A stretch of DNA of 64,000 nt from an uncultured beta proteobacterium (GCA_963828595.1 CAWHEN010000010.1:29048-93047); one strand, 5' to 3'; counted from the stretch's first letter, positions 2,609-62,819 are shown. The notes: a model not told the origin generated them from the letters alone. A program made the numbers and translations.

Positions 2609-2612
2609 GAGG

Positions 2613-5836: not shown

Positions 5837-5846
5837 ATCGTGGCGT

Positions 5847-6897: not shown

Positions 6898-7047
6898 CCC
6901 ACTACTCCTCGTCGACCCATCTACGCCGGCAGCTAATACCGGCAGGGTTGCTATCCGTCATCGGTTGATATATTATTTAGCTAATCACGCAAATAGTCAA
7001 TAACAAGTTTAGCCAACAATGCCAATACAACGACCTTTTGAGGCATC

Positions 7048-7440: not shown

Positions 7441-7473
7441 CGATCCCGCCGAATGGCGCCGAAACTTGGGCCG

Positions 7474-8720
7474 TCAATCGCTTGTCGACACGCGCCGCAC
7501 TTCGAGACGCGCATCTGGCAGCCGACCGGGCGTCTCGTCCAGCAGAGGCGAGGGCTTTCCCTTCAGATAGCGGTTGAAGAAGGCGAGCGTGTAGGCGTTG
7601 GTTTCGGCAAAACCCCGATAGGGGTCGATGGGACCTGCAAGTCCGATCCAGCGAACGATCGGTGTCCAGATCGGCGCATCGGTCCAATTGACGTGAAACA
7701 TCCCGTTCATGCTGACGTAATAGGCATCGGCAAGGTTGTGCTCGAACAAGGCGCGCTGGGTGTCGACGGTGTGCACGATCTCGAACTCAGGCCACCCGCC
7801 GACCTTGCTGCGCTCGGCCCGGATGACGTCGGCGTCACGACCGATGATCATCAGCGGCTGCACCAGCCCATCTCGCGCGACGGCCGCTGTCTTTCCGGCG
7901 TCACCGCAAGACAGGCGCGGAATCTTCGATCGCGATAGCACGCTTCAGGAGCGACATAGCCGCCCAGTGACACGCCGAAGGCGCCGGCTCGGCCGGCGTC
8001 GATGTGACCTGCCAGGATGGGGTCGTCGTGGTCGAGGATCTCGACCTGATCGAGAACAAACCGCAGATCATCCGCGAGGAACGGGATAATGCCGCCCGGA
8101 AGCACGACGCCATTCAAGATCGGTGACTGGCTGGACGCATGCGACAGAGCGATCGGCATGTAGCGATCGAGCACAGGCTTATCGATGACCCGGATCACCC
8201 GCCCGCCCGGGAGCACGGTTGCCGCCGCGGTTCCAGGCTGGTCAAGCCCGACGACGACATAGCCATGCGAGGCGAGTTCTTCGATCCAGAACAGGCTCGA
8301 GTCTCGAAATACCGTAAACCCCGCCGGGTTGACGAGAACGGGGAAGCGCCCCTCCGCGGCGGGTGCGTCTCGCACTGCGTGCGTTGGCGCGTGCTCGACG
8401 TTGGCAAGCAGGAACGCCGGGACATGTAGACGCATGGCCAGCACCCGGAGGGGCTCGCTCGAATCCATATAGGGCTGCGGCGTGCCCCGGCCGGTCGTCG
8501 GATACCAGATCTGCACCACCAGCTCGCGGTGATCGCCGGGGCCGGCCGTAAACGGCTCGGGTCGCGTCGGGTCGGTCCAGGAATAGGTGCGCGTGCCGAC
8601 GCCATAGGCGCCGGTCGGCCGCGGGAACCGCGGCGTCGGAAAGACAAGCACCCACAACGCAACGCCCACCGCTATCGTTGCAAGCAAGCCAACGATGACC
8701 ACTCTGACCGCTGAGATCAT
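7474..8720 (-). CDS. alpha/beta hydrolase, PAF-acetylhydrolase-like / dienelactone-hydrolase-like, one frameshift near 7890
   Basis: N-terminal TM helix, nucleophile elbow GVSLGG, ..RFRACLAV.. then continuation in frame 7474-7941 (..PLMIIGRDADVI..). Confidence 0.7.
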
Positions 8721-8758
8721 CACAACATCGCGACGGCAGCCGTGGTCCGTTGCGGCAT

Positions 8759-9673
8759 CTAGGCCTCGCCCATCTGCGCCAACATTCGTGGCCATCCATC
8801 GCGAACACTCGGAAAGCGCGGCGCCCAACCCGTCGCGCTGCGGAGCTTGCGGTTGGACAGGCGAAGGGACCGAGCCATGGCTTCGCCAACGGATCCGAAG
8901 AGCGGCGTCGCCCAGCTCGGCAGGAATCGCGGTGGCTTAAGTCCGAGGTCTTCTGCGAGCGATCCGAAGTAGACCGCGCGCAGAACCGGCTCGTCGTCGG
9001 CCACCGTGTACGCGCCGGAGGGGGCGTTCAACGCGGCGACGACCGCGGCTGCAGCGTCATCGTGCGCGATCGAGGAGATATATCGGTCGGGTCCTCCGGG
9101 TAAGGCTGCCCAGCCGATGCGCAGGATGTCGATGTAGCTCCTGACCTGCATCGCATCCGGGCCGTAGAAAGCGGCAAACCGCAGGGCGACGCCTTTGCCG
9201 CCGCCGGCGGAAAATCGTTCGACCGATTTCTCCGCGTCGACAACGGTCCTGTTGTAGTCCGCCGGTTCGAGAGGCGTCTGCTCGTCGATCCAGCGGTCTC
9301 CACGATCCGGATAAGTGAGTGCGAAAGACTCCTGCACGAGCGTGCCGATGCCACAGCGAAGCGCGGCCTCGACGACGTTCGCGACCCCTTCGCGCCTGAG
9401 CCGATCGTTGAGACGCCAGGCAGTGCGAAACAACATCTTCCACGTTGGGGAGGGCATGTGCGTCGCGAGATTGATGACCGCGTCGTGGCCCGACACCGCC
9501 TGCTTGAGTTGGTCGACATCGAAGAGGTCGACCTGCACGAATGTGGCACCGACCTTCTCCGATGGAGAAGGCTCGTTATGTGCCATGGCGGTAACGGAGT
9601 GTCCCTGAGCCAGCAGCAAGGGAACGACCCGCCGGCCGATGACACCGGTGGCCCCGCTGACAAAGATACGCAC
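8759..9673 (-). CDS. NAD-dependent epimerase/dehydratase family (extended SDR) protein
   Basis: MRIFVSGATGVIGRRVV.. Rossmann motif GxxGxxG; intact 304-aa ORF. Confidence 0.85.
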   Translation of the reverse strand: MRIFVSGATGVIGRRVVPLLLAQGHSVTAMAHNEPSPSEKVGATFVQVDLFDVDQLKQAVSGHDAVINLATHMPSPTWKMLFRTAWRLNDRLRREGVANVVEAALRCGIGTLVQESFALTYPDRGDRWIDEQTPLEPADYNRTVVDAEKSVERFSAGGGKGVALRFAAFYGPDAMQVRSYIDILRIGWAALPGGPDRYISSIAHDDAAAAVVAALNAPSGAYTVADDEPVLRAVYFGSLAEDLGLKPPRFLPSWATPLFGSVGEAMARSLRLSNRKLRSATGWAPRFPSVRDGWPRMLAQMGEA

Positions 9674-9854
9674 TGACTTTGGTCCCTAAACCGTAGCGAC
9701 CGTCCGCTCTCGAATAGGTTCCGTCACCGTGCAGTCCTACGTCAAATTCGGACCCGTGCCGATGGACGATATTGCGGGATCGACGTAGATTTTGATGGCA
9801 GGGACGGGGCCCGTGGGCTTAGGGATTCTCGGTATTTCCGACAGAGGAAGGTCT

Positions 9855-10597: not shown

Positions 10598-11924
10598 CTA
10601 CGTCGGCGTCCATTCGCGGGCGAGCCTCTGCGCCTCGGCGATCTGGGACAGCGTCATCTTTTTGGCCACGATGTCGCGGTTCTTGCTGGCATGGCTGCGC
10701 TTCTCGGCTTCGGAAGGCAGAAACCGGGAGGCGGCGAGGTTGAGCCACCGATGGCCTTCGACATAGTTCTGCGGAACGCCTCGGCCATAGTAGTACATGA
10801 TGCCGAGATTGAGCTGAGCGGCGGCGTCCCCCTGATCGGCCGCCTTGCGATACCACTGCACCGCCTCGGCGTAGTCTTGTTTCACGCCATAGCCGTTTTC
10901 GTACGCGGCTCCCAGACTGAACTGGGCGCTCGCATTGTTTTGATCGGCCGCGGCGCGGAACCACTTGAGGGCCTCCAAATAGTCCCTGGGCGCACCCTGA
11001 CCGATCTCGCACATGACGCCGAGGTTGTATTGGGCAACGGCGAATCCCTGCTCGGCCGCCTTGCGAAACCACTCGCGTGCCTCGGCGTAGTCCTGCTCAG
11101 CGCCCTGGCCACTTTCGTACAAGACCCCAAGGTTGTTCTGGGCGTGAGCGTAGCCTTGCTCGGCGGCCTTGCGATACCACTTCGCTGCCTCCGCATGGTC
11201 CTGCGGCGTTCCGCGTCCGCGCTCGTACAGGTAGGCGAGACTGTTCTGGGCGAGTGCGAAGCCACGATCGGCCGCTTTGCGGAACCACTGAGGGCCTCGG
11301 CGTAGTTTTGAGCCACACCGCGACCGCGCTCGTACATGACGCCGAGATTGTGCTGGGCGCGGGGAATCCCCTGGTCAGCGGCCCGGCGATACCACCTGAC
11401 CGCCTCGACGTCGTCCTGTGGCAGCCCGCGCCCGCTTCGTACATGAAACCAAGGTCGTTCTGGGCTCGAGCATGGTCCTGATCCGCGGCCTTGCGATACC
11501 AGGTGACGGCCTCGCCATAATCCGGTGGTAAGCCCTGACCGCTTTCGTAATCACACCGAGGTCATTCTGCGCGTGCGCGTAACCCAGCAGCGCGGCTTTG
11601 CGATACCACTTCGCGGCTTCGGCATGGTCCTGAGGCATGCCCTCGCCAACGCTGTACATTTTGGCGAGCGCGTACTGGGCGCGGTCTGATAACCCTGGTG
11701 GGCGGCCTTGCGATACCACGAAAGCGCTTCGTCAGCGTCCTTCGGCACGCCCTGGCCGGCGCTGTACATGCGGGCGAGCGCGTACTGGGCGGGGGCATAA
11801 TCCTATCGGCAGCCTTGCGATACCACAACATCGCTTCGGCCGCGTCCTGCGGCACGCCCTTGCCCTGCGCATACATCAAGGCGAGGTCATAGTGCAAGCT
11901 GGCTTCGCCCGGGATGGAGAGCAC
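10598..11924 (-). pseudogene. Sel1-like repeat (SLR/TPR-like) protein, about 12 repeats, split by about 6 frameshifts
   Basis: Repeated 36-aa units (..AQ.NLG.MYE.G.GV.QDYAEA..WYRKAA.QG..) recur in all three minus frames from 11924 down to the intact tail ORF 10598-1122. Confidence 0.8.
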
Positions 11925-12072: not shown

Positions 12073-14099
12073 CTACGAGATCGATGGCGAATCGCATTCG
12101 TTCGGTGCTTGTCGCCAGCCGCGAGGAGCCGCGTGGCTGGCCTGCATGTACATGAGGTGGATCGCCCCGATTGTTCCGGCTTTGGTCCACCGGCTGACGT
12201 CAGTCGACGCTATCGGTGGTACGCAGGCGCTCGCATTGGGCATGCGATGCCCACCGGCGCTGGCTGCACTGCATTTGCATGCAGCGGTACAGCGAGAATT
12301 GCGTGCGCGGACCGCAGGCCTCGCGCGGACTGGCCGGGGCGCGCGAGGCATGTCGCTGTGCCACGCGCGTTGGGGGCGGGGCAAGGGCAGGCGGCTGCGC
12401 GACTGCAGCCGGTTCGGCCGTCGCGGCGATAGCTGCGGCCGCCAGCGTCGCGCGGTTGGGGCTGGCAGAGGACGCAGGCGCGGTGGCGCCGGCGGTGAGT
12501 CCGCGGCGGTTGGCTCCTTCGGCGTCGGTTTCGTACCCGGCGTCCGCGGCAATCGGGGCGCTGGCAGGAGATGCGGGCGCCGTGGCGCTCGACGACTCCG
12601 CGGCGGTGGTCTCTATCGGCGTCGAATTCGCAGCCCCGGCGTTCGCGGCAATCGGGGCGCTGGCAGGAGAAGCGGGCGCGGTGGCGCTCGAGTCCGCGGC
12701 GGTTGGCTCCGCCGGCATGGGCTTCGCGCCTCCGGCGTCCGCAGCAATCGGCGGTGTCACCGGCGCTGCAGGGCCACGGGGGACGCGGACTCCGCGGCGC
12801 TGTCCCCGGCACCCGTGCCGCGGCTGATGCCAAGGACATCGAGCACGCGCCCGAACTGGCGTTCCTGATGAAACTCATCCATGCCGATAAGCAGCAGCGC
12901 CACCAGCACCAGCACCGCACCGCTCCACCTCGCGATGCGTCCAGGCTTGGGCGCTTGGCGTGCGAAGCCGACCGCAACGATGGATCAAGATCGATGCGAG
13001 CGATGCCGGAGTTGCCAGAGGGTCGGGATCGGGCGAGAGCGCCACCAGGGTATCGAAATCTTGCGCCACAGGGGGCGGCTCCGCGGGCTGCGGGGCCTCG
13101 GGGCCGGCGACGATGGCACAGCATCGATCAGCACAGGGGCGGGGGTCCGTGCCGCGCTGGCGGGCCACCTGCGGCCGGACGGCGCGACCCCAAGCGTGCG
13201 CGCATCTGCGCGACGCTTTGGGGCCGCTCGGCGGGATAGATGGACAAAGCGCTGTCGAGCGCGTCCAGCAGCGATGCGCTGTAGTGCAGCCGCGGCCAGG
13301 TCAGGCGCAGCCGTTGCACGGTGTCTGCGAGTCTTTCGCGCCGTGGGGTGCGGGGCGCGCCGAAGGCCGGCGCGGGCAACTGCCCGCTCATCCAGTAGCG
13401 CGCGACGCCGGCCAACGCGTAGAGGTCGACCGAGGGACGGAGCGGAATGTCGGCCGATTCGACCATCTGCTCGATCGGCGCGAAGCAGGGTTCCGCGCTG
13501 GTCATCAGCGCGTCGATCCGGTCGCCGGCGATGCCCGGCCCGCCGCGGCGGGGCCCAGCAGCAGCGGTCGGTTGTCGGCCAGCAGCAAAATATTCGACGG
13601 CGTGACCTTGCCGTGACCTCCCCCTGCGTGGTGAAACGCCTCCAGCGCGCCTAGCAGCGCGTCGAGCAGCGCGCGCACTGCCTCCTCGTCGGGTGGTTCG
13701 TTCATGCTCCCGCGCACCTCGAGGAGCCGCCTGCCCAGGTAGCGCGGCATGACGCGGTAGGCGGTTCCATTGGCTTCCCATAGGCGCGCGATGCGCACCA
13801 GCGACGGATGGGCGCATCGGGCCAGCGTTCGGGTTTCATTGATGAAGGCCTTCAGCCCTTTTGCAAAGGCATCGGCCTGCGCGGAGGTCCGTGGCGTGAC
13901 CTGTCGCTTCATGATTACGCTGCGCAAGTCTCGCCGGCATGTACTCCGCGATCGCCACCGGGGCCGCGCGAGCGCGGTCCGTGGCCGCGTAGACGATCAC
14001 GGCGCTGCCCTCGCCGATGACTTCCCCAACCTCGAACTCGTCCAGCCAAGCACCTGCGGGTAAGGCGCGGGCAGCCGACGCGATGGGGCTGTCAGGCAC
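12073..14099 (-). pseudogene. membrane-anchored Ser/Thr protein kinase homolog with degenerate catalytic motifs and a Pro/Ala-rich repeat ectodomain; several frameshifts, 3' end uncertain
   Basis: Kinase-fold segments in 13836-14099, 13505-13927 and 13128-13817 (..EFEVGEVIGEGSAVIVY..VAIAEYMP..; ..HHAGGGHGKVTPSNILL..; ..FAPIEQMVES..DLYALAGV..). TM helix WSGAVLVLVALLLIGM encoded near 12880-12930. PA-rich repeats at 12440-12775. Confidence 0.65.
12440..12775. repeat. about 3.4 tandem copies of a 96-99 bp (33 aa) coding repeat
   Basis: GCGGCAATCGGGGCGCTGGCAGGAGA recurs at 12546 and 12645, with a variant at 12741. Translated on the minus strand it gives ..ATAPASPASAPIAA(N/D)AG... Confidence 0.75.
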
Positions 14100-14525: not shown

Positions 14526-15015
14526 ATGCCACACGGCGCGTCCGCTCCGGCTATCGCGCGTTCCGACGGCGTGGACACTGCGAAAACGCCGGTCGTCGTC
14601 ACCGGCGTGATCGGCTCCGATACGCACATCGTCGGCAACCGCATCCTGTCGATGGCGCTCGAGCAGGCGGGGTACAAGGTCGTCGCGCTGGGCGCGCTCA
14701 CGCCGGCGACCGAATTCATCAAGGCGGCCATCGAGACAAACGCCGACGCGATTCTCGTGTCGTCGCTCTACGGCCAGGGCGAGCTCGATTGCCGCGGGTT
14801 CCGCGACCTGTGCATCGAAGCAGGGCTCGACGGCCATCCTCCTCTACGTCGGCGGCAATCTCGTCGTCGGCAAGCAGGCGTGGCCCGAGGTCGAGAAACG
14901 GTTTCTCGACATGGGATTCGACCGCGCGGCGTCGCCGGGAACGCGCATCGAAACGGTTCTCGCGTGGCTCGCCGAGGACCTCGCGCAGTCGCAAGCGCGC
15001 AACGCGGACGGGTGA
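14526..15015 (+). CDS. glmS: glutamate mutase (methylaspartate mutase) sigma subunit, B12-binding; one frameshift near 14832
   Basis: ..[31 protein letters not shown].. (DxHxxG-type B12 loop). After LDG the homology continues in the +1 frame as [30 protein letters not shown].. to TGA 15013-15015. Confidence 0.85.
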
Positions 15016-15019
15016 GGCG

Positions 15020-16439
15020 ATGACGACAGCCGCGCTGTTGATCGACTTCGGCAGCACGTACACGAAGCTGCGCGCGATCGACCTCGATCGGCGGCGCATC
15101 CTCGGCTCGGGCCAGGGCCCGTCGACCGTCACGACCGACATCATGATCGGCATGAAGGCGAGCCTCGCCGACCTCGAACGGCGCCTCGGCGGCTTGCCGC
15201 GCTTCAAGTACCGGCTCGCCTCGAGCAGCGCGGCGGGGGGGTTGCGCATGGTGACCGTCGGGCTCGTGCGCGAGCTCACCGCCGAGGCGGCGCGCCGCGC
15301 GGCGCTCGGCGCCGGCGCGAAGCTCGTCGGCGCGTTCGCGTACCGGCTCACCGAAAGCGACGTCGAGCGCATCGTCGCGCTCGCACCCGACATCCTGCTG
15401 CTTGCCGGCGGCACGGACGGCGGCAACAGCGACGTCATTCTGCACAACGCCGAAGTGCTCGGCCGCAGCGCGCTGGCGTGCACTGTCGTGCTCGCCGGCA
15501 ACCGCAACGCGGCCGACGACGCGCGGGCGGCGCTCGCCGGCAGGGAAGTGCTGGCGACCGAGAACGTGATGCCGGAGTTCAACGTGCTCCACATCGAGCC
15601 CGCGCGCGCGGCGATCCGCCAGGTATTCATCGACCGCATCGTGCACGCCAAAGGGATCGACCGCGCGCACGCGGAATTCGATCGCGTGCTGATGCCCACG
15701 CCGGCGGCGGTGCTCGAAGGCGCGCGGATGCTCGCCGACGGCTGCGACGGGATCTCCGGCCTCGGTCCGTTGCTCGTCGTCGATCCGGGCGGCGCCACGA
15801 CCGACGTGCATTCGGTGGCGAGCGGAGAGCCTTCCGCTCCCGGCGTGATCGTGCAGGGCTTGCCCGAGCCGCGCGTGAAGCGCACCGTCGAAGGCGACCT
15901 CGGGATGCGTCACAACGCGGCGAACATCGTCGAGCTCGTCGGCGTCGATGCGATCGCCGCGGAAGCGGGGCTCGACGCCGCGGCGCGTCAACGCGCTGGT
16001 TACCGAGATCTCGGACGATTTCGACCGCCTTCCGCGGACGGCCGACGAGATCGCCCTCGACCAGGCGCTGGTCTGTGCCGCCGTCAAACATGCGGTGATG
16101 CGGCATTGCGGCACGGTGGACACCGTCTACACGGTGACCGGTCCGGTTGCCGTGCAGCACGGGAAGGACCTGTCCGAGGTCAGCGCGGTGATCGGCACCG
16201 GCGGTGCGCTGGTCCACAGTCCGGATCCCCGCTCGGTGCTGGAGACGGCGCTCGCCGACCCCGCCATGCCCCGTTCGCTGCGGCCGAAAGCGCCGAAGCT
16301 CTTGCTCGACCGGCACTATTTGCTGTATGCCTGCGGCTTGCTCGGGACCGTCGAGCCGCAGGCGGCGCTCGAGCTCGCGCTCGCAAACCTCGATGCCATG
16401 GAAAGGAGTCCCTCGGTTGAACGCGCCGTCATCGCCTGA
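15020..16439 (+). CDS. glmL: glutamate mutase accessory/reactivating protein GlmL (MutL); one frameshift near 15985
   Basis: [22 protein letters not shown].. and ..[15 protein letters not shown].. (ASKHA-fold motifs). Continues in frame 15948-16439. Confidence 0.85.
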
Positions 16440-17914
16440 AGCGACGCGCCGCCCGCTGTCCGAGGAGCGGATCCCGGACGACGTGTTCGCGGAGATGCGG
16501 CGCGAGAACCTCGCGCGCTGGTCTACCGGCAATGGCGTCGACTTCGACGAGGCCGTCGCGTTGCAGCGGGCGCTCCCCGAGCACAAGCAGCTCGGCCGCG
16601 TCATGCGCCGCGCGGTCGCCGAGAGGCGCTGCCTCACGCAGCCGCGCGGCGGCTTCGGCACATTCGAGATGCAGCGCGAGTTGATGGTGACGCTCGATCG
16701 CGACGGCCACGCCGACATCGTGCCGACGACGACCGACAGCTACACGCGCAACGAGCAATGGGACCTCGCGCAAAAAGGCATCGAGGAATCCGAGCGCCTG
16801 GGGCGCTCGATGCTCAACGGCTACCCGATGGTCAACTACGGTGTGGCGCGCGCGCGCGAGCTGATCGCGGCGATCGACAAGCCGGCGATCATGCTGACCG
16901 GCACGACGATGCCGAAGCTCACCAGCGAAATCGCTTTCGCCGGCGGGTACTCGGGTTACCTCGGCTCCGGCATCGCGTACACGACCTCGTACATCAAGGA
17001 GCTGTCGATCGAGGACGGCGTCCGCAACTACCAGTACCTCGATCGTCTCGCCGCGATGTACGCCGAACACGGCGTCGAGCTGCACCGGCGCCAGCCGGGC
17101 TTTCTCACCGGCACCAACATTCCGCCGTGCATCGCGATCGCGACCTGCGTGCTCGATTGCCTGCTCGCGGCCGCGCAGGGCGTGAAGAACTACGGCCTCG
17201 AGATGGGCGAGACGATGCACCTCGTGCAGGACGCCGCCGCGGTCGCCGCCTGTCGCGAGCTGTGCCAGGAGTACCTCGCGCGAAAAGGCTATTGCCGACG
17301 TCTTCACCTCGGTGACGCTGCTGCACTGGATGAGCGCGTGGCCGCAGGACGAGGCGCAGGCGGCGGCGCTGCTCTGCTACGGCGGCACGCTCGCGGCGGT
17401 GAGCGGCGCCGCGAGCGTCACGACCAAGTCGACCCACGAGGCGTTCGGCATTCCGACGCCGCAGGCCAACGCGGAAGGCCTGCGGATGACCCGGATGGCG
17501 ATCTATCTCGCGCGCGATATCCGGCTCGACGGGCTGCCGGCGTACGAGCAGGAAAGGACGCTGATCGGCCGTGAAGTGCGCGCGATCGTCGACAAGGTGC
17601 TCGAGATGGGCGACGGCGACGCCGCGGTCGGCTCCGTGCGCGCCTTCGAGGCGGGCGTCATGGACGTGCCGTGGTCGCCGAACCGGCATTGCAAAAGCCG
17701 CGTGCTGCCGGCGCGCGACGTCGATGGATGCCTGCGCATTCTCGATCCCGGGCTGATGCCGTTTCCGCGCGACATTCTCGAGTTGCACGAGGAGCGGCTG
17801 CGCAAGCGCGCGGAACGCGACCGGATCGCGTTCGGGCCGGATCTCGCCGTGCAAAGCGTCTACGAAATGTCGGAGCCGGTCGAAAAGCTGCTGCCGGACC
17901 GGTGGATGCGATGA
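16417..17914 (+). CDS. glmE: glutamate mutase epsilon (catalytic) subunit; TTG start after GAAAGGAG; one frameshift near 17291
   Basis: ..WSTGNGVDFDEAV..TQPRGGF..TTDSYTRNEQWDLAQKGIEESERLGRSMLNGYPMVNYGV.. parallels Clostridium GlmE as I recall it. The C-terminal half is in frame 17312-17914. Confidence 0.9.
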
Positions 17915-19032
17915 GCGACATCGCGCTGTTCGACCGCATCGACGTTCACCGGCTCCGCATCCCGCTGGTCACGCCCTACCGGCTTGCGTTCGGCCCGGTC
18001 GACCATTTCGACACCATCGTCGTCGAGATCACCGATCGCGATGGACGCGTGGGCCTGGGCGAAGCCACGGTGCTGACCGGGTATACCGACGAGACGATCG
18101 ACGACAGCTGGCGCGTCGCGCGCGACTTCGCGTCGCAACTTGCGACCATGGACGCCGGTTTCGCGTTCGATACCATCGCCACGCTGGGCGCTCGATACCC
18201 GTTCACGGCGACGGCGTTCGGCTCGGCGCTCGAAATGCTCGCCGGCAGTGCCGCGCTCGACGTGCGCGAGACGATGCGCGTCCCGTTGCTGGGGCTGCTC
18301 AATGCGGAGCACGAGGAGGCGATCGCCGCCGAATTCGAGCAGCTTCTCGCCGCGGGATTCCGCACGATCAAGGTCAAAGTGGGCTTCGACGCCGTGCGCG
18401 ACGCGCAGCGCGTGCGCGCCGTGCAGCGCGTCGTCGCCGGTCGGGCTCGCATCCGGGTCGACGCGAACCAGGGCTATACCGCCGACGAAGGCGTCGCGTT
18501 CGTGCAAGCGCTCGATCCCGCCGACATCGAGCTCTTCGAGCAGCCGTGCGCGGCCGGCGACTGGGACGCGCACCTCGCCGTCGCGCGCGCCGCGTCGGTG
18601 CCGATGATGCTCGACGAGTCGATCTACGGGCTCGACGACATCGACCGCGCGGCGGAGCTTGGCGCCGCGCGCTACATCAAGGTCAAGCTGATGAAGCTCG
18701 GCACGCTCGAGCGGCTCGCCGCGGCGATCGCGCGTATCAACGCGCTCGGCATGCGCGCGGTGCTCGGCAACGGCGTCGCGTGCGACCTCGGCTGCTGGAT
18801 GGAAGCGTGCGTCGCCGCGCGCGCGATCGACAACGCGGGCGAGATGAACGGCTTCCTCAAGGCGCGCAGCGGACTTCTCACCACGCCGCTCGAATTCGAG
18901 GCCGGGGCGATCGTGCTCAGGCCCGGGTTCGCGCCGCGCCTCGATCATGGGCGCATCGCGCCATACCGCGTCGACTCCGCCGGTTTCGCGCGCACGGGCG
19001 CCGCGATTGCCGTGCGGGAGACGAACCAGTGA
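17911..19032 (+). CDS. enolase-superfamily enzyme of the MR/MLE (dipeptide-epimerase / muconate-cycloisomerase-like) type, not methylaspartate ammonia-lyase
   Basis: ATGA overlap with the glmE stop. Motifs FRTIKVKVG (KxK), IRVDANQGY, ELFEQP, MMLDES and YIKVKLMKLG match the MLE-subgroup ligand/base pattern. Confidence 0.85.
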   Translation: MSDIALFDRIDVHRLRIPLVTPYRLAFGPVDHFDTIVVEITDRDGRVGLGEATVLTGYTDETIDDSWRVARDFASQLATMDAGFAFDTIATLGARYPFTATAFGSALEMLAGSAALDVRETMRVPLLGLLNAEHEEAIAAEFEQLLAAGFRTIKVKVGFDAVRDAQRVRAVQRVVAGRARIRVDANQGYTADEGVAFVQALDPADIELFEQPCAAGDWDAHLAVARAASVPMMLDESIYGLDDIDRAAELGAARYIKVKLMKLGTLERLAAAIARINALGMRAVLGNGVACDLGCWMEACVAARAIDNAGEMNGFLKARSGLLTTPLEFEAGAIVLRPGFAPRLDHGRIAPYRVDSAGFARTGAAIAVRETNQ

Positions 19033-20016
19033 AGGCGGTGACGATCGCCCGCTTCGGCGGTCCGGACGTGCTCGAATTGAGCGACGTCGCACACGCCGGC
19101 GCCGCGCCCGGGCGAGGCGCTGGTCGAGCTCGAATGTGCAGGCGTCAACTTCATCGACATCTACATGCGCAGCGGCCAGTACGCGCGCTCGCACACCTAT
19201 CAGACGCCGCTGCCGATGACGCTCGGCATGGAAGGCGGCGGCGTCGTGGCCGCGCTGGGTGAGGGCGTGACCGATTTCTCGGTCGGCGATCGCGTCGCGT
19301 ACTGCATCGTGCGGGGCAGCTATGCCCAGTTCGCCTCGGTGCCGGCCGCGCGGCTGGTCCCGATTCCGGCCCACGTGCCGATGACGATCGCGACCGCGCT
19401 GATGCTGCAGGGGTTGACCGCGCATTACCTGTCGCATTCAGCGTATTCGCTCGGCCCGGGGAAGACCTGCCTCATCCACGCCGGCGCGGGGGGCGTCGGT
19501 CAGCTGCTGATCCAGCTCGCGAAGCTGCGCGGCGCGACGGTGATCGCGACCGTGGGCAGCGAGGAAAAGGCGGCGGTCGCCCGCGAACGCGGCGCCGACC
19601 ACGTGGTTCTCTATCGGGACGTGGATTTCCGCGACGAGGTGAAGCGACTCACCGACGGCCGCGGCGTCGATGTCGTCTACGACGCGGTCGGCCGCGACAC
19701 GATCGCGCTCAGCATCCGCAGCCTCGCGCGGCGCGGCCTGTGCGTAAACTACGGCGGCGCGTCGGGACTGGTCGCGTCGATCGAGCCGCTCGAGCTGGCC
19801 GAAGCGGGGTCGGTATACTTTACGCGCCCGCACCTTGCGGACTATATTGCGTCGGCGGCCGAGTTGCGTGGACGTGCGGCCGACCTGTTTGCTGCGTACG
19901 CGGCCGGCACGCTCGCCGTGACGATCGACCAGGAGCTGCCGCTCGCCAACGTGGCCGACGCGCATCGCTGGCTCGAGGCGCGCCACACGAAGGGGAAGCT
20001 GCTGCTGGACGTGTGA
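19029..20016 (+). CDS. NADPH:quinone oxidoreductase / zeta-crystallin-like MDR; GTG start overlapping the upstream stop; one frameshift near 19100
   Basis: VKAVTIARFGGPDVLELSDV.. then, after the shift, ..PGEALVELECAGVNFIDIYMRSGQY.. and AGAGGVGQLLIQLAKLRGA (Rossmann motif). Confidence 0.85.
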
Positions 20017-20078: not shown

Positions 20079-21050
20079 ATGAGACTTGCCAGATTGTCAC
20101 AGCGTGCGATGCGCGTGCTTCTCGCTTGCGTTGTCGCGTTCATGGCGTGCGTCGCAACAGCGCAGGAGAAATATCCGTCGCGCCCGATCGAGTTCATCGT
20201 TCCGTGGGGTCCCGGTGGCGGCGCCGACCAGGTCGCTCGCAAGTCCGGCAAGATGATGGAGGATGATCTCAAAGTGTCGTTCCCGGTGGTCAACGTTCCG
20301 GGCGCTACGGGCAATACCGGCATGGCCAAGCTGCTCGCCGCGCAGCCGGACGGCTATTCGATCTCGGTGATGACGTGGGACACGTATGCACTCCTCGCGA
20401 CGAATCCGGCGACGCGCTGGTCGCTCAAGGACATCATCCCGGTCGCGCTGATGATCAAGCAGCCGTCGGCGTTCATGACTGCAACGAACGGCAATCTGAA
20501 GACGTGGGCCGATGTCGAGCGCGAGGCAAAGACGCGGCCGCTGAAGGTGGCCGTAACCGGTTTCGGAAGCCCCGACGACATCACCGTCAATTATTTCGTC
20601 GCGCGCGGGCTTAAATTGATCGCGGTCCCGTTCGCCAATCCCGGCGAGCGCTATACCGCCGTTCTCGGTGGACACGCCGACCTCCTGTACGAGCAACTCG
20701 GAGACGTGCGCAGCTTTCTCGACAGCAAGCAGATCCAGCCGGTGATCATTTTTGCCGAGAAGCGCTTCAGTGTATTCCCGGACGTGCCCGCATCGAAGGA
20801 GCTCGGCTTCGACATCACGCTGCCGCAGCGGCGAGCGGTGATCATGAAGGCGGGTACGGATCCCGCGAAAGTGAAGGTCATTTCCGACGCGCTCGCGAAG
20901 GTCGCGGCGAGCCCGGAGTACAAGACGTACCTGCAGGAACAATACGCAACCGACGACAGCTACTTCGCCGCGGCGGACGCGGCGAAGATCATGGAGGAAG
21001 ATCTCGCGCAGATGAAGCGGTTCGCCGCGGAGACCGCGGCGAAGAAATGA
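20079..21050 (+). CDS. tctC: tripartite tricarboxylate transporter (TTT) substrate-binding protein, Bug/TctC family
   Basis: Signal peptide, then ..YPSRPIEFIVPWGPGGGADQVARK.. and ..VVNVPGATGNTG.., hallmarks of Bug proteins. GAAGGAGG RBS at 20066-20073. Confidence 0.9.
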   Translation: MRLARLSQRAMRVLLACVVAFMACVATAQEKYPSRPIEFIVPWGPGGGADQVARKSGKMMEDDLKVSFPVVNVPGATGNTGMAKLLAAQPDGYSISVMTWDTYALLATNPATRWSLKDIIPVALMIKQPSAFMTATNGNLKTWADVEREAKTRPLKVAVTGFGSPDDITVNYFVARGLKLIAVPFANPGERYTAVLGGHADLLYEQLGDVRSFLDSKQIQPVIIFAEKRFSVFPDVPASKELGFDITLPQRRAVIMKAGTDPAKVKVISDALAKVAASPEYKTYLQEQYATDDSYFAAADAAKIMEEDLAQMKRFAAETAAKK

Positions 21051-21078: not shown

Positions 21079-21639
21079 ATGCTGACTCGACTGCGGCGCA
21101 CGGTCCCGTACGTGATCGTCTTCGCGGCGACCATCGTTCTGTTCGTCTTCGCGAAACAGATCACTTTCATCGCACCGGGCGGGCGCATCGGTCCGGACAT
21201 CTGGCCGAAGGCGATCCTGGCGCTGGCGATGCTCACCTGCGTATTCCAGATCGTGAAGATCCTCTTCTTCGACGAGACGGGCGAGCAGGTGCCGGGCGTG
21301 CTCGAAAGCATCATCGAGGAGGCGCCGGCAGGCGAGATTGTCGAGGCCGCGCCCGAGGCCAGGTATCCGCACCTGATCGTCGGCGGGATCGTCCTCACCG
21401 TGGCGTACGTGGTGCTGATCGAGCGGCTCGGCTTCTTCCTCTGCACGTTCGCCTACCTTGCTGCGTTCGCATGGATCGGCCGCTACCGGCGGCCGCTGGT
21501 GGTGCTCGCGGCGAGCCTCGTCGGCAGCCTCCTTTTCATGTTCGTGTTCATGAAGGTCGTCTACGTTTCCCTGCCGCTCGGGCAGGAACCGTTCTCGCAG
21601 GTCACTTTCCTGCTGATGCGACTGATGGGTATCCGGTAG
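21079..21639 (+). CDS. tctB: TTT small membrane subunit TctB
   Basis: 186 aa, 4 TM segments, positioned between tctC and tctA. Confidence 0.8.
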   Translation: MLTRLRRTVPYVIVFAATIVLFVFAKQITFIAPGGRIGPDIWPKAILALAMLTCVFQIVKILFFDETGEQVPGVLESIIEEAPAGEIVEAAPEARYPHLIVGGIVLTVAYVVLIERLGFFLCTFAYLAAFAWIGRYRRPLVVLAASLVGSLLFMFVFMKVVYVSLPLGQEPFSQVTFLLMRLMGIR

Positions 21640-21645
21640 GGCCAC

Positions 21646-23268
21646 GTGCTCGACGTCGCGCTTTCGTTCCTCGCGGCGTTCCATACCGTATTCCAGCCGA
21701 CCAACCTGATCGCGCTGGTCGTCGGTCTGGTGGTCGGCATGATCGTCGCGGTGCTGCCGGGGCTCACGCTCGTGATGGGCGTCGTGCTGGCGTTGCCGTT
21801 CACCTACGGCATGGCGATCACGCCATCGATCATCCTGCTCACCGCGATGTATATCTCCGGAACGTATGGCGGTGCGTTCACGGCCATCTTGTTTCGCATT
21901 CCGGGCGAACCGCTCGACGTGCCGCTGCTTTGGGACGGGTACGCGATGGCGCACAAGGGCGAGCCCGCGAAGGCCCTCGGGTGGACGCTGTTCGCGGCGT
22001 TTTTCGGCGGAATCCTCTCGACGCTCGCGGCTGTTGCGATGGCGCATCCATTCGCCACGTTCGCGCTGAAGTTCGACTCGCCCGAGTATTTCGCGATCAT
22101 TCTGTTCGGTCTGACCAGCGTGGTCGCGCTGAGCGGCGCGTCGCTGGTAAACGGCTTCATCAGCCTGTTCCTCGGACTGATGATCGCGTGCGTCGGCGTC
22201 GACTCGATCTATGGCGCCGAGCGCTTCACGTTCGGGGTGCCGATGCTCGCCGACGGCATCGAATACCTGACGGTGATGGTGGGCGCGTACGGCGTCGGCG
22301 AAGTGCTCGTGCGGCTGGAGCAGGGGTTCCAGACGCCGCCGGTGCAAGCCGGCGGGCGCGTGGCGACCCGCTTCCCTTCGATCCGGGAAGCCTGGGCGGT
22401 CAGGGCGACGCTCGCGCGAAGCTCGATTCTGGGAATCATTCTCGGCATCATCCCGGGCGCCGGCGCGACGATCGCATCGTTCGTGTCGTATGGCACCGAG
22501 GCGCAGTACGGCAAGCGGCGCGACCTCCTCGGCACGGGCATCGCCGAAGGAATCGTCGCGCCGCAGACCGCCTCCACGGCAACGGTCGCCGGTCACATGG
22601 TGCCGCTGATCACGCTGGGCATTCCGGGCAGCGGCGCGACCGCTGTGATCCTCGGCGCGTTTCTGCTGCACGGCGTCCAGCCGGGTCCGCAGGTTTTCGT
22701 CAAGGACCCGGGCCTGGTCTACGCGATCTTCGCCTCGCTGTTCGTCGGCGTGATCGGCATGTGCCTGATGGGCTATTTCGCGATCAAGAGCCTGATCAAG
22801 GTACTCTACCTTCCGGAGGCGGTTACTTCGGCATTCGTCGTGATGTTCTGTTTCATCGGCGCGTTCTCTGCGCGCAACAACATCACCGATCTCTGGATGA
22901 TCGTGACCTTCGGTATCGTCGGCTACGTGTTCGAACGCTTCCGCTTTCCCATCGCACCGATGGTGCTGGGCTGCATCCTCGGCGAGCAGGCGGAGAGCGC
23001 GTTCATGACGAGCATGATCAGCTATCAGAACGACTGGACGGTCTTCTTCAGGCGGCCGATCAGCGGTGTCGTGATGGTGTTCGTCGTCATCGCACTGGGC
23101 TACCCGCTGCTGCGCCACTTGCGCCAGAAGCGCGACCAGCAGCAACCGGCGACGTCTCAGGTGCGCGGCGCTGAGGGGGCCAGGTCGGCAAGCTGCAGGC
23201 GCTGCACCTTGCCTGACGGTCCTTTGGGCAACTCGGCGACGAAGCGCACGAAACGCGGCGCCTTGTAG
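21646..23268 (+). CDS. tctA: TTT large membrane subunit TctA (the last ~35 codons overlap the convergent ligase gene and may not be real)
   Basis: ..LPGLTLVMGVVLALPFTYGM..ISGTYGGAFTAILFRIPGEP..IIPGAGATIASFVSYG.. are typical TctA segments. Confidence 0.9.
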   Translation: MLDVALSFLAAFHTVFQPTNLIALVVGLVVGMIVAVLPGLTLVMGVVLALPFTYGMAITPSIILLTAMYISGTYGGAFTAILFRIPGEPLDVPLLWDGYAMAHKGEPAKALGWTLFAAFFGGILSTLAAVAMAHPFATFALKFDSPEYFAIILFGLTSVVALSGASLVNGFISLFLGLMIACVGVDSIYGAERFTFGVPMLADGIEYLTVMVGAYGVGEVLVRLEQGFQTPPVQAGGRVATRFPSIREAWAVRATLARSSILGIILGIIPGAGATIASFVSYGTEAQYGKRRDLLGTGIAEGIVAPQTASTATVAGHMVPLITLGIPGSGATAVILGAFLLHGVQPGPQVFVKDPGLVYAIFASLFVGVIGMCLMGYFAIKSLIKVLYLPEAVTSAFVVMFCFIGAFSARNNITDLWMIVTFGIVGYVFERFRFPIAPMVLGCILGEQAESAFMTSMISYQNDWTVFFRRPISGVVMVFVVIALGYPLLRHLRQKRDQQQPATSQVRGAEGARSASCRRCTLPDGPLGNSATKRTKRGAL

Positions 23269-24719
23269 CGGCCGAGGAGGCGCTCACAGTGCTCGCGCAA
23301 CGCTGCCTCGCTGCACGTACAGCCGGGCTTGAGAACGACGCAGGCGAGGATCTCCTGGCCGTACATCGCGTCGGCAACGCCGACCGCCGCGCCCTCGAGC
23401 ACGGACGGGTGTGCCAGCAATGCCTCATCGATCTCGCGCGGGGCGATGTTCTCGCCGCCCTTGATGATCAGCTCCTTCAGGCGCCCGGTGATGAAGTAGC
23501 GGCCTTCGCCGTCGCGGTAGCCCAGGTCGCCGGTCGAAAGCCATCCGTCGCGATCCACGGCTTGCGCGGTCGCGTCCGGCGGCCTGTAGTAACCGATCAT
23601 CACGTTGTCGCCGCGCAGCTGGATCTCGCCGCGCTCGCCGGCTGCAAGCACTCGTCCGTCCGGGGCAACGACACGCGCTTCCATGCCGATCGGCCGGCCC
23701 GGCGAGCCGATCGTTCGCTCTGTGGGATCGAGCGAATTGCAGAACGCCACCGACGCGCACTCGGTGAGCCCCATCGCCTCGATCACCGGCACCCCGAAGC
23801 GTTCCTCGAACGCGCGATGCTGCTCCGGCGGCAGCGGGGCGGAGGCCGAGCGCGCGAAGCGCACGCCACGGAGCGCCTCCGTCTGCGCAGGCGTCGGCGC
23901 CGCCGCGTTCAGAAGATACGCGATGATCGTCGGCACGACATTGAGCCAGGTCGGGCGGTAGCGTTCGACCAGAGGCCACCATCGGGATACGCTGAAACGG
24001 TGCGGAAGCACGATGCTGCCCCCCGATACCAGCGGGGTGACGACACCGATGCACTGACCGTTGATGTGGTAGAGCGGAAGCGACGAAAGAACGCGATCGT
24101 CCGGGGTCAGCAGATGCGCGGCGGTCACCGTGCGACCGGCATGCAGCATGTTCGCGTGCGAGAGCAGAACGCCTTTGGGCTTGCCCGTGGTGCCGGAGGT
24201 GTACATCAGCATCGCGGGACTTTGTCCTTCGAGCGAGTCAACGGCATCGGCCTCGTCGTCCGGCAGGACGAGGCGGTCGGGGTCGGTCGATAGGATCGCC
24301 GCCTTGAGTCCGATGCGCGCGACGAGCGCGGACAGCCGGTCGAAGAACTCGGGCGCCACGAAGATCGCATGCGGCGCCGCGTGCGCGAGCGTGTACTCGA
24401 GCACGGCATCCTGAGCGAGCAGGTTGATGGGCGATACGATACGGCCGGCCGTCATCGACCCGATGAAGATCGTGGCCGCCGCGAGCCCGTTGGGCAGCAT
24501 GAACGCGACAATACCCTGCTCGGGCACCCGCAAGGCGCGCAGGAGCGCGCCGAAGCGGCGCGTCGTGCGGTGCAGGTCCGCAAAAGTGAGTGAGGCGTCG
24601 GGCTCCGGGGCCAGCAGGAAAGTCGCGTGCGGCTGCTTGTCCGCGTGCTGCTCGACGACCTGCCGGAATGTCTGAAAGCGCACAGCGCCCGGACTCACGT
24701 CCCGAACTTGCGCCGCCAT
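23157..24719 (-). CDS. AMP-forming acyl-CoA synthetase/ligase (ANL superfamily)
   Basis: Intact 520-aa ORF; MYTSGTTGKPKGV (AMP-binding motif), ..YRDGEGRYFITGRLKELIIKGGENI... Confidence 0.9.
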   Translation of the reverse strand: MAAQVRDVSPGAVRFQTFRQVVEQHADKQPHATFLLAPEPDASLTFADLHRTTRRFGALLRALRVPEQGIVAFMLPNGLAAATIFIGSMTAGRIVSPINLLAQDAVLEYTLAHAAPHAIFVAPEFFDRLSALVARIGLKAAILSTDPDRLVLPDDEADAVDSLEGQSPAMLMYTSGTTGKPKGVLLSHANMLHAGRTVTAAHLLTPDDRVLSSLPLYHINGQCIGVVTPLVSGGSIVLPHRFSVSRWWPLVERYRPTWLNVVPTIIAYLLNAAAPTPAQTEALRGVRFARSASAPLPPEQHRAFEERFGVPVIEAMGLTECASVAFCNSLDPTERTIGSPGRPIGMEARVVAPDGRVLAAGERGEIQLRGDNVMIGYYRPPDATAQAVDRDGWLSTGDLGYRDGEGRYFITGRLKELIIKGGENIAPREIDEALLAHPSVLEGAAVGVADAMYGQEILACVVLKPGCTCSEAALREHCERLLGRYKAPRFVRFVAELPKGPSGKVQRLQLADLAPSAPRT

Positions 24720-26128
24720 GCGCCAAACAGCTCGTCTTCGGTCGGCTCGTGCACGGACCCGGAGGGAAGCGGACGCACGACGCTCGTGATGTTGAGGAAG
24801 TGCCGGTAGTTCAGGTTGTCCGAGAGGCTATTGCCACCCCAGGTACCGCAACCCATCGACAGCGAGAATGGCAGCGCGTTGTCGAAGCTGCCTCCGGTTG
24901 CGAAGCAGTGCGCCTGGTTGACGATGACACGGCATACGGGCAGCGTGAGCCCGAGCTCGAGCGCGCGGTTCTCGTCGCGCGAATGCAGGCCGACCGAGTG
25001 ACCGGCGCCCTGATAGTCCAGCAGCCGCCGCGCGAGCGCGGCCGCGGCGGCGAAATCGGGCACCCGGTACAGCGCGAGGACCGGTGCGAGCTTCTCGCCC
25101 GAGAACGGATGCTCGGGCCCCACGCCGGTCTGCGCCACCATCAGGAAGCGCGCCTGCTCAAGCGCGGGCCGCGCGAAGCCCGCCAGCGAGGCAATCGCCG
25201 GGGCGGACTGGGCGATGAACGCGGACGAGAGCTTGCCGCCGGCGAACATCGTGCGCTCGAGCGCGCGCGTTTCATCGGCGGACAGCAGCACGCCGCCTTG
25301 CGCTATGAGCGCCTCCACGAGCCGGCCGTAGACCGCTTCCACCGCGATCACGGCGTTCTCCGACGAGCAGCTGGTCGCGTTGTCGAAAGTCTTCGAGCGC
25401 GCGATCAGTTCGGCGGCGGCTTTGACATCGGCCGTCTCGTCGACAATCACGCTGACGTTGCCGGCGCCGACACCCAGCGCCGGCGTCCCGCTCGAGTACG
25501 CCGCCTTGACGTTGGTCTGCGAGCCCGTCGCGACGACGAGATCGGCCTGGCGCATCAGCTCGAAAGTCTGCTCGCGCCTTATCGGCGCCGGCAGCGCCTG
25601 CACCAGATCGCGCGGGGCGCCCACGCGGTCGAGCTCGGCATGGACGTAGTCGAGCAGCAGCGCAAGCGTCGAATAGCCCTTGGGCGATGGCGCCAACACG
25701 ATCGCGTTGCGGCCCTTGAGCGCGTTGATGATGTTGTTCGCCGGCGTCGCGCCGGGGTTGGTGGAAGGCGTGATTGCGGCGACGACGCCGACCGGGCGCG
25801 CGATCTCGACGATTCCGCGCTCGCGATCCTCCGCGATCACGCCGACCGACCGCGCGTGCTGCAGGTCGCGCAGCAGGCCCATCGTCTTGCGCCGGTTCTT
25901 CGCGATCTTGTCCGCCACGTTGCCCAGGCCGGTGTCGCGCACCGCGATCTCCGCGAGCGCGCGATTGCGGGCCGGCTCGACGATCGCCCAGCCGGCGGCC
26001 GTTACAACCTCGTCGATGCGCTCCTGCGACCAGTCATCGGCAATGCGTTGCGCGGCGCGCGCGCGCAGGACGAGCTCGCGAACTACCGTCGCCGGCTCAT
26101 CGCGTGTCCGGAGTTTCTCCTGCTGCAT
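24695..26128 (-). CDS. CoA-acylating aldehyde dehydrogenase (SucD/SauS/PduP-like)
   Basis: ..ITPSTNPGATPANNIINALKGRNAIVLAPSP.. and catalytic-Cys region ..FDNATSCSSENAVI... Start placed at MQQEKL (ATG 26128); the track ORF extends to 26218. Confidence 0.85.
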   Translation of the reverse strand: MQQEKLRTRDEPATVVRELVLRARAAQRIADDWSQERIDEVVTAAGWAIVEPARNRALAEIAVRDTGLGNVADKIAKNRRKTMGLLRDLQHARSVGVIAEDRERGIVEIARPVGVVAAITPSTNPGATPANNIINALKGRNAIVLAPSPKGYSTLALLLDYVHAELDRVGAPRDLVQALPAPIRREQTFELMRQADLVVATGSQTNVKAAYSSGTPALGVGAGNVSVIVDETADVKAAAELIARSKTFDNATSCSSENAVIAVEAVYGRLVEALIAQGGVLLSADETRALERTMFAGGKLSSAFIAQSAPAIASLAGFARPALEQARFLMVAQTGVGPEHPFSGEKLAPVLALYRVPDFAAAAALARRLLDYQGAGHSVGLHSRDENRALELGLTLPVCRVIVNQAHCFATGGSFDNALPFSLSMGCGTWGGNSLSDNLNYRHFLNITSVVRPLPSGSVHEPTEDELFGAWRRKFGT

Positions 26129-26214
26129 CGAAGCTGCCTTAACCGATGAAGTGTTCCACAGCGGTGCGCCCGGCGCAACCATCTCGCCCAGGAGGCGGGG
26201 GTCGCGAGCGCGAC

Positions 26215-26940: not shown

Positions 26941-27060
26941 CAAAGGCTCGGGAGACGGGCTCTCCGGGGAGGAAACCACGAGCCGTTCGTTGGCGATGCT
27001 CCACGAATTTGATAAGCACCGCGCCGGTATTAGGGTTGCGGCGAACATGATTGACCTAAT

Positions 27061-28968: not shown

Positions 28969-29005
28969 CGGCTTCCGCGCTTACGTCCAGCCTGCCAGGC
29001 GGCGG

Positions 29006-30842: not shown

Positions 30843-30846
30843 TGCG

Positions 30847-32922: not shown

Positions 32923-32943
32923 GCTTGGGAAGGAATCCGTTTC

Positions 32944-34248: not shown

Positions 34249-34260
34249 AAGAGGCGACAG

Positions 34261-62810: not shown

Positions 62811-62819
62811 GGGCTGAAC

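Follow-up and report, generated by a model that had tools for sequence, protein, structure and literature searches.

What does an operon with all three genes of a glutamate mutase achieve if the ammonia-lyase that completes the canonical operon is replaced by a different enzyme? This question is raised by positions 14526 to 20016 of a stretch of 64,000 nucleotides from an uncultured beta proteobacterium (GCA_963828595.1 CAWHEN010000010.1:29048-93047; the whole stretch is referred to as the window), where glmS-, glmL- and glmE-like genes are followed by a gene for an enolase-superfamily enzyme of the muconate-lactonizing enzyme (MLE) subgroup in place of methylaspartate ammonia-lyase (MAL), and by a gene for a quinone oxidoreductase (QOR)-like reductase. 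A previous interpretation derived from the DNA alone (hereafter the sequence-only reading) had proposed a non-canonical fate or source of 3-methylaspartate. According to the analyses presented here, it is probable that this gene set specifies a pathway not described so far, and not just another form of glutamate breakdown. The region comprises five closely packed genes on the plus strand, followed by tctCBA:

14526-15012, plus strand: glmS-like gene, cobalamin-binding small subunit (Pfam B12-binding PF02310; NCBIfam NF002612 with 120 bits, cut-off 110, N-terminal part)
15020-16439, plus strand: glmL, mutase accessory protein/reactivase of the MutL family (Pfam PF13941 matches both halves)
16417-17914, plus strand: glmE-like gene, catalytic subunit with a non-canonical pocket (PF06368, Met_asp_mut_E, matches both halves)
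17911-19032, plus strand: MLE-subgroup enolase-superfamily enzyme, 373 amino acids, intact (PF13378, MR_MLE_C, 8.6e-34)
19029-20016, plus strand: QOR/zeta-crystallin-type NADPH oxidoreductase of the medium-chain dehydrogenase/reductase (MDR) type (Pfam ADH_N PF08240, ADH_zinc_N PF00107 and ADH_zinc_N_2 PF13602)

The glmE stop and the MLE start codon (ATG 17911) overlap as ATGA, and the GTG start of the QOR-like gene (19029) overlaps the MLE stop (GTGA). The glmS-like product contains the DxHxxG cobalamin motif (base-off/His-on) as SDTHIVG; the intact GlmS and GlmL orthologues scored 186 bits with NF002612 (cut-off 110) and 566 bits with NF040745 (cut-off 475), respectively. The Rfam scan of the whole window gave zero matches and, therefore, no cobalamin riboswitch. 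The gene set named by the sequence-only reading was thus recovered by Pfam and NCBIfam, including the MDR oxidoreductase coupled by its GTG overlap and the downstream tripartite tricarboxylate transporter (TTT) uptake system, of which tctC, tctB and tctA were identified.

The product of the gene coupled to glmE belongs to the MLE subgroup and is not MAL, as had been claimed, and it meets no characterised MLE-subgroup function. All motifs quoted for it beforehand (FRTIKVKVG, DANQGY, EQP, LDES and KVKLMKLG) are contained in the translation. The catalytic set K154, K156, D184, E210, D235 and K259 (the KxK motif at the end of strand 2, the D/E/D metal ligands on strands 3-5 and the second lysine on strand 6) occupies columns that do not vary among 25 homologues and show conservation of 97% or more among 114, and it aligns with the same residues of the N-succinyl-Arg/Lys racemase 2p88 and the Ala-Glu epimerase 1jpm. 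Foldseek comparison of the AF2 model (pLDDT 85.6) revealed dipeptide epimerases, N-succinyl-/N-acyl-amino-acid racemases and muconate-lactonizing enzymes as similar structures (TM about 0.8, 20-25% identity); MAL was absent among the top 50 matches, all of which were other enolase-superfamily proteins, mostly of the MLE subgroup. Furthermore, the MAAL Pfam domain was not found in the protein, and BLASTP against the Salmonella MAL yielded E = 7.6.

No NCBIfam equivalog cut-off was reached by the MLE protein: the best model, o-succinylbenzoate synthase (OSBS; TIGR01927), scored 116.8 versus 130.6, the Ala-Glu epimerase models 81 versus 500 and 44 versus 343 bits, and DgcA 81 versus 400. The enzyme shares the MLE fold (capping domain plus barrel), the acid/base pair formed by the KxK motif and the further lysine, and the D/E/D ligands with dipeptide epimerases and N-succinyl-amino-acid racemases/OSBS (1jpm, 3q45, 2p88, 1sja), but differs from them by its low identity, by its failure to reach any equivalog cut-off and by invariant blocks of its own (TGYTDET, GNGVAC and GEMNG). 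In dipeptide epimerases, a DxD motif after strand 8 binds the N-terminal ammonium; the invariant E311-M-N313 of the GEMNG block lies roughly at this place and is at most a tentative counterpart of the motif. Searches for the family gave more than 2,600 homologues, and it is closely knit, as each of the top 120 shares at least 64% identity with the window protein; an exact-sequence look-up of the window protein itself returned no record.

The QOR-like protein consists of GroES-like and Rossmann domains and is closest to QOR-type enzymes. Among solved structures, it most resembles M. tuberculosis Qor, P. syringae QOR, 2-haloacrylate reductase (1wly, 3e-68) and E. coli QOR, with PDB matches to Qor, QOR and 2-haloacrylate reductase in the range of 1e-66 to 1e-72; 2-haloacrylate reductase CAA43 and E. 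coli QOR rank as the closest ones. NCBIfam PRK10754 remained below its cut-off (270 versus 348 bits). CAA43 reduces the C=C bond of a free 2-substituted acrylate.

The substrate pocket of the mutase was compared with that of glutamate mutase, for which a crystallographic study of 2022 described R66, R100 and R149 as the "arginine claw" (PMC10947579): the migrating glycyl moiety is bound by R66, R149 and E171 (the amine by E171, the carboxylate group by R149), while the acrylate half of the substrate is bound by R100 and Y177 (PMC10947579). In the gap-free alignment of the GlmE-like protein to the Clostridium cochlearium epsilon subunit (PDB 1CCW chain B/1I9C), R66, R100, Y177 and Y181 are kept, and three positions are substituted (R149 to Leu, E171 to Leu, E214 to Arg). 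Two defining features of glutamate mutase, the complete arginine claw for the two carboxylates and E171 as hydrogen-bond partner of the substrate ammonium, are thus missing, each because of a leucine. The pattern R66 R100 L149 L171 Y177 Y181 R214 was present in 43/43 MLE-linked GlmE proteins, whereas the four MAL-linked GlmE (C. cochlearium, Salmonella, Gemmobacter and Ensifer) have R, R, R, E, Y, Y and E at the same positions. As the binders of the glycyl carboxylate and of the ammonium group, R149 and E171, are lost, L-glutamate is probably not the substrate; judged from the alignment, the part of the pocket recognizing the amino-acid end appears to have been remodelled through the loss of an acidic and the gain of a basic residue.

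A profile-free HMMER scan for the GlmE family over 1.84 billion representatives (50% clustering) gave 562 members, at least 26 of which carry the canonical signature RRRHDEYYE. The clade of the window protein is separated from the rest by an identity gap (at least 60% within versus at most 46%), its identity to canonical GlmE amounting to 37-41%. With TIGR01503, the intact GlmE orthologue scored 446 bits (cut-off 390) compared with 830 for MAL-linked GlmE; since the cut-off is passed, though at the edge of the model, annotation pipelines would name the protein methylaspartate mutase. The Met_asp_mut_E family (P0121-P0270) contains many more clades that are non-canonical at positions 66, 149, 171, 177 and 181, e.g. 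RRRSDVSYE and GRTGEFDHL, and enzymes of different substrate specificity may be concealed under the annotation "methylaspartate mutase". For P0122, the most divergent LL-type GlmE of full length, the contig measures just 2 kb and its context is uninformative.

The adjacency of glmE and the MLE gene is strongly conserved in both search directions. For the forward set, one genome per species was scanned, resulting in 527 loci with an MLE relative, the best 80 of which were taken for loci and were nearly all from Betaproteobacteria (Casimicrobiaceae, other Burkholderiales and Pelomicrobium); the reverse set consisted of 80 JGI metagenome loci chosen by this GlmE type. How often this MLE clade accompanies glmE had been raised as a question by the sequence-only reading: glmS, glmL and glmE were located within 10 kb in 29/37 MLE-picked species genomes whose flanks extend for at least 6 kb on each side (QOR in 25/37 of these), and the MLE gene was carried by 24/26 GlmE-picked metagenome loci with enough flank. 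Among the MLE-picked genomes the linkage occurs in at least ten gene orders, and the glm genes can even lie between tctC and tctBA; this variety argues for selection on the linkage itself. A MAL gene just outside the operon in relatives, which would have spoken against the sequence-only reading, was not detected: tblastn with three MAL sequences returned noise only, both in the 64-kb window and within 10 kb in about 160 loci.

The MLE proteins of eight loci without glm genes interleave with the glm-linked ones, with identities of up to 81%, and a comparison of the two groups revealed no group-specific residue column; distinct specificity residues for the MLE enzymes of glm-less loci were accordingly dismissed.

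The neighborhood of the module points to organosulfonate metabolism. Sulfoacetate routes have been described with SauT, SauS and Xsc in Cupriavidus necator and with the TTT importer SauXYZ in Bilophila, whose TctC-family protein SauZ binds sulfoacetate (PMC10413351). In the window, the following genes adjoin the QOR-like gene:

20079-21050, plus strand: tctC, periplasmic binding protein of the TTT transporter (88% identity to the L002 gene with PF03401)
21079-21639, plus strand: tctB, small membrane subunit (PF07331 in the orthologue)
21646-23268, plus strand: tctA, large membrane subunit (PF01970 in the orthologue; 93% identity)
23157-24719, minus strand: AMP-forming acyl-CoA ligase at the position of SauT, sulfoacetate-CoA ligase (by context; NCBIfam generic ligase families only)
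24695-26218, minus strand: SauS, acylating sulfoacetaldehyde dehydrogenase (NCBIfam equivalog NF047625, 734 bits, cut-off 600)
26215-27048, minus strand: SAM-dependent methyltransferase (kept at the module edge in the closest relatives)

The TTT gene set is complete, with TctC, TctB and TctA together, and the window genes are 74-93% identical to their orthologues; the methyltransferase may stand outside the module proper. In the 79 MLE-picked genome loci, counted up to a distance of 10 kb from the MLE gene, SauS was present in 28/79, the SauT-like ligase in 20/79 (in these 20 loci recurring beside both SauS and the module), a TauD-like dioxygenase in 15/79 and Xsc in 9/79. The GlmE-picked metagenome loci contained SauS in 18/80 (likewise up to 10 kb from MLE), Xsc in 13/80 and TauE in 7/80 cases, the last at a stricter threshold; a more sensitive two-query search detected TauE in 23/161 sequences (both locus sets and the window). 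In L047 and many metagenome loci, the order is sauT< sauS< MLE (QOR) tctC glmS glmL glmE tctB tctA tauE< xsc<. Operons of the type xsc-MLE-glmSLE are present in L056, L059 and L071, the Xsc of the latter being assigned by equivalog TIGR03457 (975 bits, cut-off 676), and in L080 a divergent GntR gene is positioned between xsc and the MLE gene. TauE lies directly beside glmS as the sole sulfonate-related neighbor (no Xsc or SauS nearby) in L002, L011, L017 and L092. Upstream of the L071 operon, a TRAP transporter (DctP/DctM) and an IseJ-like GMC oxidoreductase (2747-9842) resemble isethionate-utilisation clusters.

One conserved chromosomal slot (dapA-bamC...methyltransferase< MLE> ... homospermidine-synthase-like (HSS-like)<) deserves separate description. 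It is occupied by MLE-glmSLE in L046 and L066, and by MLE together with a TauD-like Fe/2-oxoglutarate dioxygenase, about 1 kb downstream of MLE, in L054, L065, L070, L074 and L078; the MLE proteins of the two slot types are 79-81% identical. The exchange of glmSLE for the TauD-like gene in one slot suggests B12-dependent and O2-dependent alternatives. The HSS-like gene may be a housekeeping flank; in NCBIfam, no family matched this gene or the small methyltransferase, TauE and TctC neighbors.

In summary of the previous interpretation, the replacement of MAL by an MLE enzyme, the conserved adjacency and the usual presence of QOR have stood. The premise of 3-methylaspartate has not: the conversion of L-glutamate to (2S,3S)-3-methylaspartate by GlmS/GlmE is countered by Leu149 and Leu171 throughout the MLE-linked proteins and by the TIGR01503 score, and a fate or source of 3-methylaspartate is doubtful on the same grounds. 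The wiring of the module and the TTT transporter to sulfoacetate, sulfoacetaldehyde and sulfite genes had been overlooked.

Taken together, the genes are read as a single conserved module for catabolism in Betaproteobacteria from soil and groundwater (Casimicrobiaceae as well as other Burkholderiales), composed of an adenosylcobalamin (AdoCbl) carbon-skeleton mutase of the glutamate-mutase family (S subunit, GlmL chaperone and E subunit), the MLE enzyme, usually the QOR-like reductase, and a presumably co-transcribed TTT importer. The genes present, their conservation, the substitutions in the pocket and the neighborhood are observed; from these we infer the substrate and every chemical step. 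The mutase substrate would more likely be an imported glutarate-type acid with a neutral or anionic 2-substituent. The charge swap in the pocket (E171 lost, R214 gained) and the genomic context point to an anionic, probably sulfonated substituent X, and the repeated position of the module beside sulfoacetate, sulfoacetaldehyde and sulfite genes to a sulfonated carboxylate. That the substrate is not glutamate and is probably sulfonated is a tentative reading, which we consider slightly less likely than not.

Chemically, the mutase may catalyze the same type of 1,2-shift on X-CH2-CH2-COO-, with an X other than a cation-bearing glycyl group. Of the pocket, the half that binds -CH2-CH2-COO- ("acrylate") is retained (R100, Y177 and Y181), as is R66. 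In the first step, 2-sulfoglutarate would be converted to 3-methyl-2-sulfosuccinate. The former should be unable to lose sulfite because no acidic proton flanks its C-S carbon; in the latter, the proton alpha to the carboxylate would now be situated beside the C-S carbon. In the second step, the MLE enzyme would abstract this alpha-proton, resulting in epimerisation and/or E1cB beta-elimination of sulfite, as MAL does with ammonia; in the third, the QOR-like enzyme would reduce the resulting C=C bond of the enoate, and TauE would export the sulfite. Overall, these steps would be the sulfo counterpart of the methylaspartate route, with a sulfonated C5 acid that has no amino group as the substrate. 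Alternatively, a 1,2-sulfonate shift might convert 3-sulfopropanoate to 2-sulfopropanoate. The specific proposal that the GlmSE-like protein is the first AdoCbl mutase acting on an organosulfonate, with the MLE enzyme as racemase and/or sulfo-lyase, is speculative, and we regard it as doubtful. If true, mutase and MLE enzyme would constitute an oxygen-independent route of C-S cleavage, for which close relatives substitute a TauD-like dioxygenase in the same slot.

Several points weigh against a sulfonated substrate. To our knowledge, no sulfonated C5 acid is known as a natural metabolite. Sulfonate genes are located within 10 kb in only about a third of the loci, many loci stem from related lineages, so that the counts do not represent independent events, and TauE (PF01925) belongs to a broad permease family. 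The GlmS, GlmL and GlmE orthologues all pass their NCBIfam equivalog cut-offs, and R214 is only a putative pocket-lining residue. The missing group-specific residues in the MLE proteins of the eight glm-less loci imply that the MLE enzyme may not act on the mutase product. Finally, SauS, SauT, Xsc and the TTT importer make up a full sulfoacetate route by themselves (PMC10413351), so that the neighborhood could reflect co-location in an island instead of a shared pathway.

Among the competing explanations, a true, divergent glutamate mutase survives best, although we consider it unlikely: the MLE enzyme would epimerise or deaminate 3-methylaspartate and the QOR-like enzyme would reduce the product, i.e. 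a non-canonical fate of 3-methylaspartate. The passed equivalog cut-offs and the conservation of R66, R100, Y177 and Y181 are consistent with this proposal, the tight glmE-ATGA-MLE-GTGA-QOR coupling would suit successive steps, and the substitution of an MLE-subgroup enzyme for MAL is chemically reasonable, MAL being an enolase-superfamily enzyme itself. The mutase sequences speak against it, as the positions of R149 and E171, which are kept in all MAL-linked GlmE, are occupied by leucine in every MLE-linked protein checked and the TIGR01503 score is barely over the cut-off; moreover, sulfonate genes recur nearby while glutamate- or aspartate-related genes do not, and a TauD-like gene occupies the glmSLE slot in close relatives.

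The loss of E171 might also fit an N-acylated glutamate rearranged by the mutase, the MLE enzyme then serving as N-acyl-amino-acid/dipeptide racemase or epimerase on substrate or product. An amide nitrogen needs no E171, the loss of E171 and R149 would allow a neutral acyl group to be accommodated, there are good chemical precedents for an N-acyl-glycyl radical, and the nearest solved relatives of the MLE enzyme are N-succinyl-Arg/Lys racemase and dipeptide epimerases. However, the module has no conserved amidohydrolase or acylase, the dipeptide epimerase and N-acetyl-D-Glu racemase models reached 81 bits versus cut-offs of 400-500, and both QOR and the sulfonate context would be left unexplained, so that we judge N-acylated substrates to be quite improbable.

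Very improbable, in our view, is a function in acetyl-unit assimilation, in which mutase, MLE enzyme and QOR would form a shortened bacterial methylaspartate cycle operating on 2-hydroxyglutarate or 2-oxoglutarate. Acetyl phosphate is all that C2 sulfonates provide, and the module is situated beside three sulfoacetaldehyde entries (SauST; the IseJ-like GMC oxidoreductase with TRAP transporter of L071; the TauD-like enzyme) that share acetyl phosphate as the Xsc product; the loss of the amine-binding glutamate would also suit a 2-hydroxy or 2-oxo acid. Yet CoA-transferase, mesaconyl-CoA hydratase and methylmalyl-CoA lyase, which make such a cycle anaplerotic and flank the canonical glm-MAL clusters of L084 and L085, do not occur in any module locus, splitting to acetate and pyruvate would give no net carbon gain, and there is no special tie to other acetyl-CoA-yielding pathways.

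A feature unremarked in the sequence-only reading is that glmS, glmL, glmE and the QOR-like gene are each +1 frameshifted in the window. The base-level alignment to the 93%-identical L001 identified one extra C each at 14835 (glmS), 15979 (glmL), 17296 (glmE) and 19090 (QOR), and removal of the four bases resulted in full-length genes with zero internal stops. Each extra C directly follows G or C (GGC[C]AT, CGC[C]GC, TGC[C]GA and TCG[C]AC). The L001 sequence, a metagenome assembly whose contig_N-style name suggests long reads, has four different single-base insertions of its own that are limited to glmE; the adjoining 6 kb (tctCBA, ligase and sauS) show zero indels against L001, and in two assemblies the errors are clustered within the same operon. 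Unrelated window genes are also split across frames (SBP_bac_5, ABC ATPase, Orn/Lys/Arg decarboxylase, Na/sulfate-type symporter and AcrB), the split genes being located in 1000-6000, 27375-29009, 30843-31897, 54375-57267 and 61067-64000, the symporter being broken into at least three pieces; sequence errors appear to affect the entire contig. The similarity of tctA to its orthologues stops near 23145, from where the open frame continues for about 120 nt and overlaps the convergent ligase gene (23157-23268), possibly another sequence error.

The whole cluster is unbroken in L002 (a 4.58-Mb contig), L003 (a metagenome-assembled genome, MAG) and L005 (a short-read MAG), and the dN/dS values of ten repaired window genes against these three range from 0.04 to 0.25 (0.04-0.19 against L005 alone), indicating purifying selection. 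Because unrelated genes are split too, relatives are intact and selection is purifying, the four frameshifts are most likely assembly errors and not operon decay; pseudogenisation specific to the operon was rejected in view of the window-wide frameshifts and the selection on the repaired genes. A decaying pseudogene cluster with four genuine frameshifts, for which the interruption of 4/5 genes and the indel-free neighboring tctCBA, ligase and sauS might be quoted, is thus highly improbable in view of the likewise split unrelated genes, the four different insertions in the L001 glmE, the restoration of every gene by removal of four bases and the dN/dS values against L005.

Further genes of the module loci and of the window are mentioned for completeness. 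In several loci, a soluble-type FrdA/SdhA-like flavoprotein of 573 amino acids (best models TfrA or L-aspartate oxidase, below cut-off) and an SdhB-like Fe-S protein adjoin the module, just upstream of MLE in L024 and L025, and after glmE or tctA in L049/L050; L025 also has SucCD-like CoA ligase genes. In the window, the genes of a dipeptide/oligopeptide ABC transporter (binding protein, permeases and two ATPases) precede those of an amidase and an M20 peptidase at 27375-35580, and no evidence tying the transporter to the module was seen. At 57410-60785, an Asp-Al_Ex exchanger gene precedes the gene of a 548-amino-acid class I/II aminotransferase-fold protein, an order typical of an aspartate:alanine antiporter and aspartate 4-decarboxylase. 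Upstream of the operon, a tandem array with units of 107-110 nt codes for a Sel1-type repeat protein (10598-11924, minus strand), a 99-nt, 3-copy repeat lies in an Ala/Pro-rich coding stretch of 70% G+C (12461-12751), and protein-kinase-like fragments adjoin the latter (13128-14099, minus strand).

How does the module compare with known systems? In the literature searched, no account of a glutamate/methylaspartate mutase combined with an MLE-subgroup enzyme was found, consistent with the sequence-only reading, according to which no described pathway of this composition was known. The glmS-glmL-glmE-MAL operon of clostridia and Enterobacteriaceae (L083, Salmonella plasmid) shares the three mutase genes in the same order and likewise has an enolase-superfamily gene coupled to glmE; the logic is possibly shared as well, in that the rearrangement places a proton alpha to a carboxylate beside a leaving group. 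It differs in that MLE replaces MAL here, the pocket is L149/L171/R214 and not R/E/E, and the module has a QOR-like reductase, a TTT importer and sulfonate genes but no mesaconase or citramalate genes. Methylaspartate-cycle-like clusters (glmS-glmE-MAL-CoA transferase-CoA ester lyase), which are also present in haloarchaea, likewise occur in aerobic/facultative proteobacteria (Alphaproteobacteria L084 and L085); these keep R149/E171, MAL, CoA-transferase and lyase, all of which are lacking in the present module. Precedents for single elements are the cis-3-hydroxy-L-proline dehydratase with pyrroline-2-carboxylate reductase, where a reductase acts after beta-elimination by an MLE-subgroup enzyme, and the methylmalonyl-CoA epimerase/mutase, where a B12 mutase has a racemase as its partner; both pairs differ from the module in protein families and substrates and are analogies only. 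With respect to sulfoacetate degradation (SauT, SauS, Xsc and SauXYZ), SauS, AMP-ligase, Xsc, TauE and TctCBA flank or interleave with the module; the published route involves no B12 mutase, enolase-superfamily enzyme or QOR (PMC10413351), whereas here these interleave with the transporter genes.

Few AdoCbl carbon-skeleton mutases are known, and a glutamate-mutase relative with a re-charged pocket would add a substrate class; its MLE partner represents a large MLE-subgroup family without assigned function. If the reading of a non-glutamate substrate is true, hundreds of Betaproteobacterial genomes probably carry incorrect "methylaspartate mutase" labels. If the sulfonate link is true as well, the module would constitute an undescribed B12-dependent step in the organic sulfur turnover of soil and groundwater, with an apparent O2-dependent alternative.

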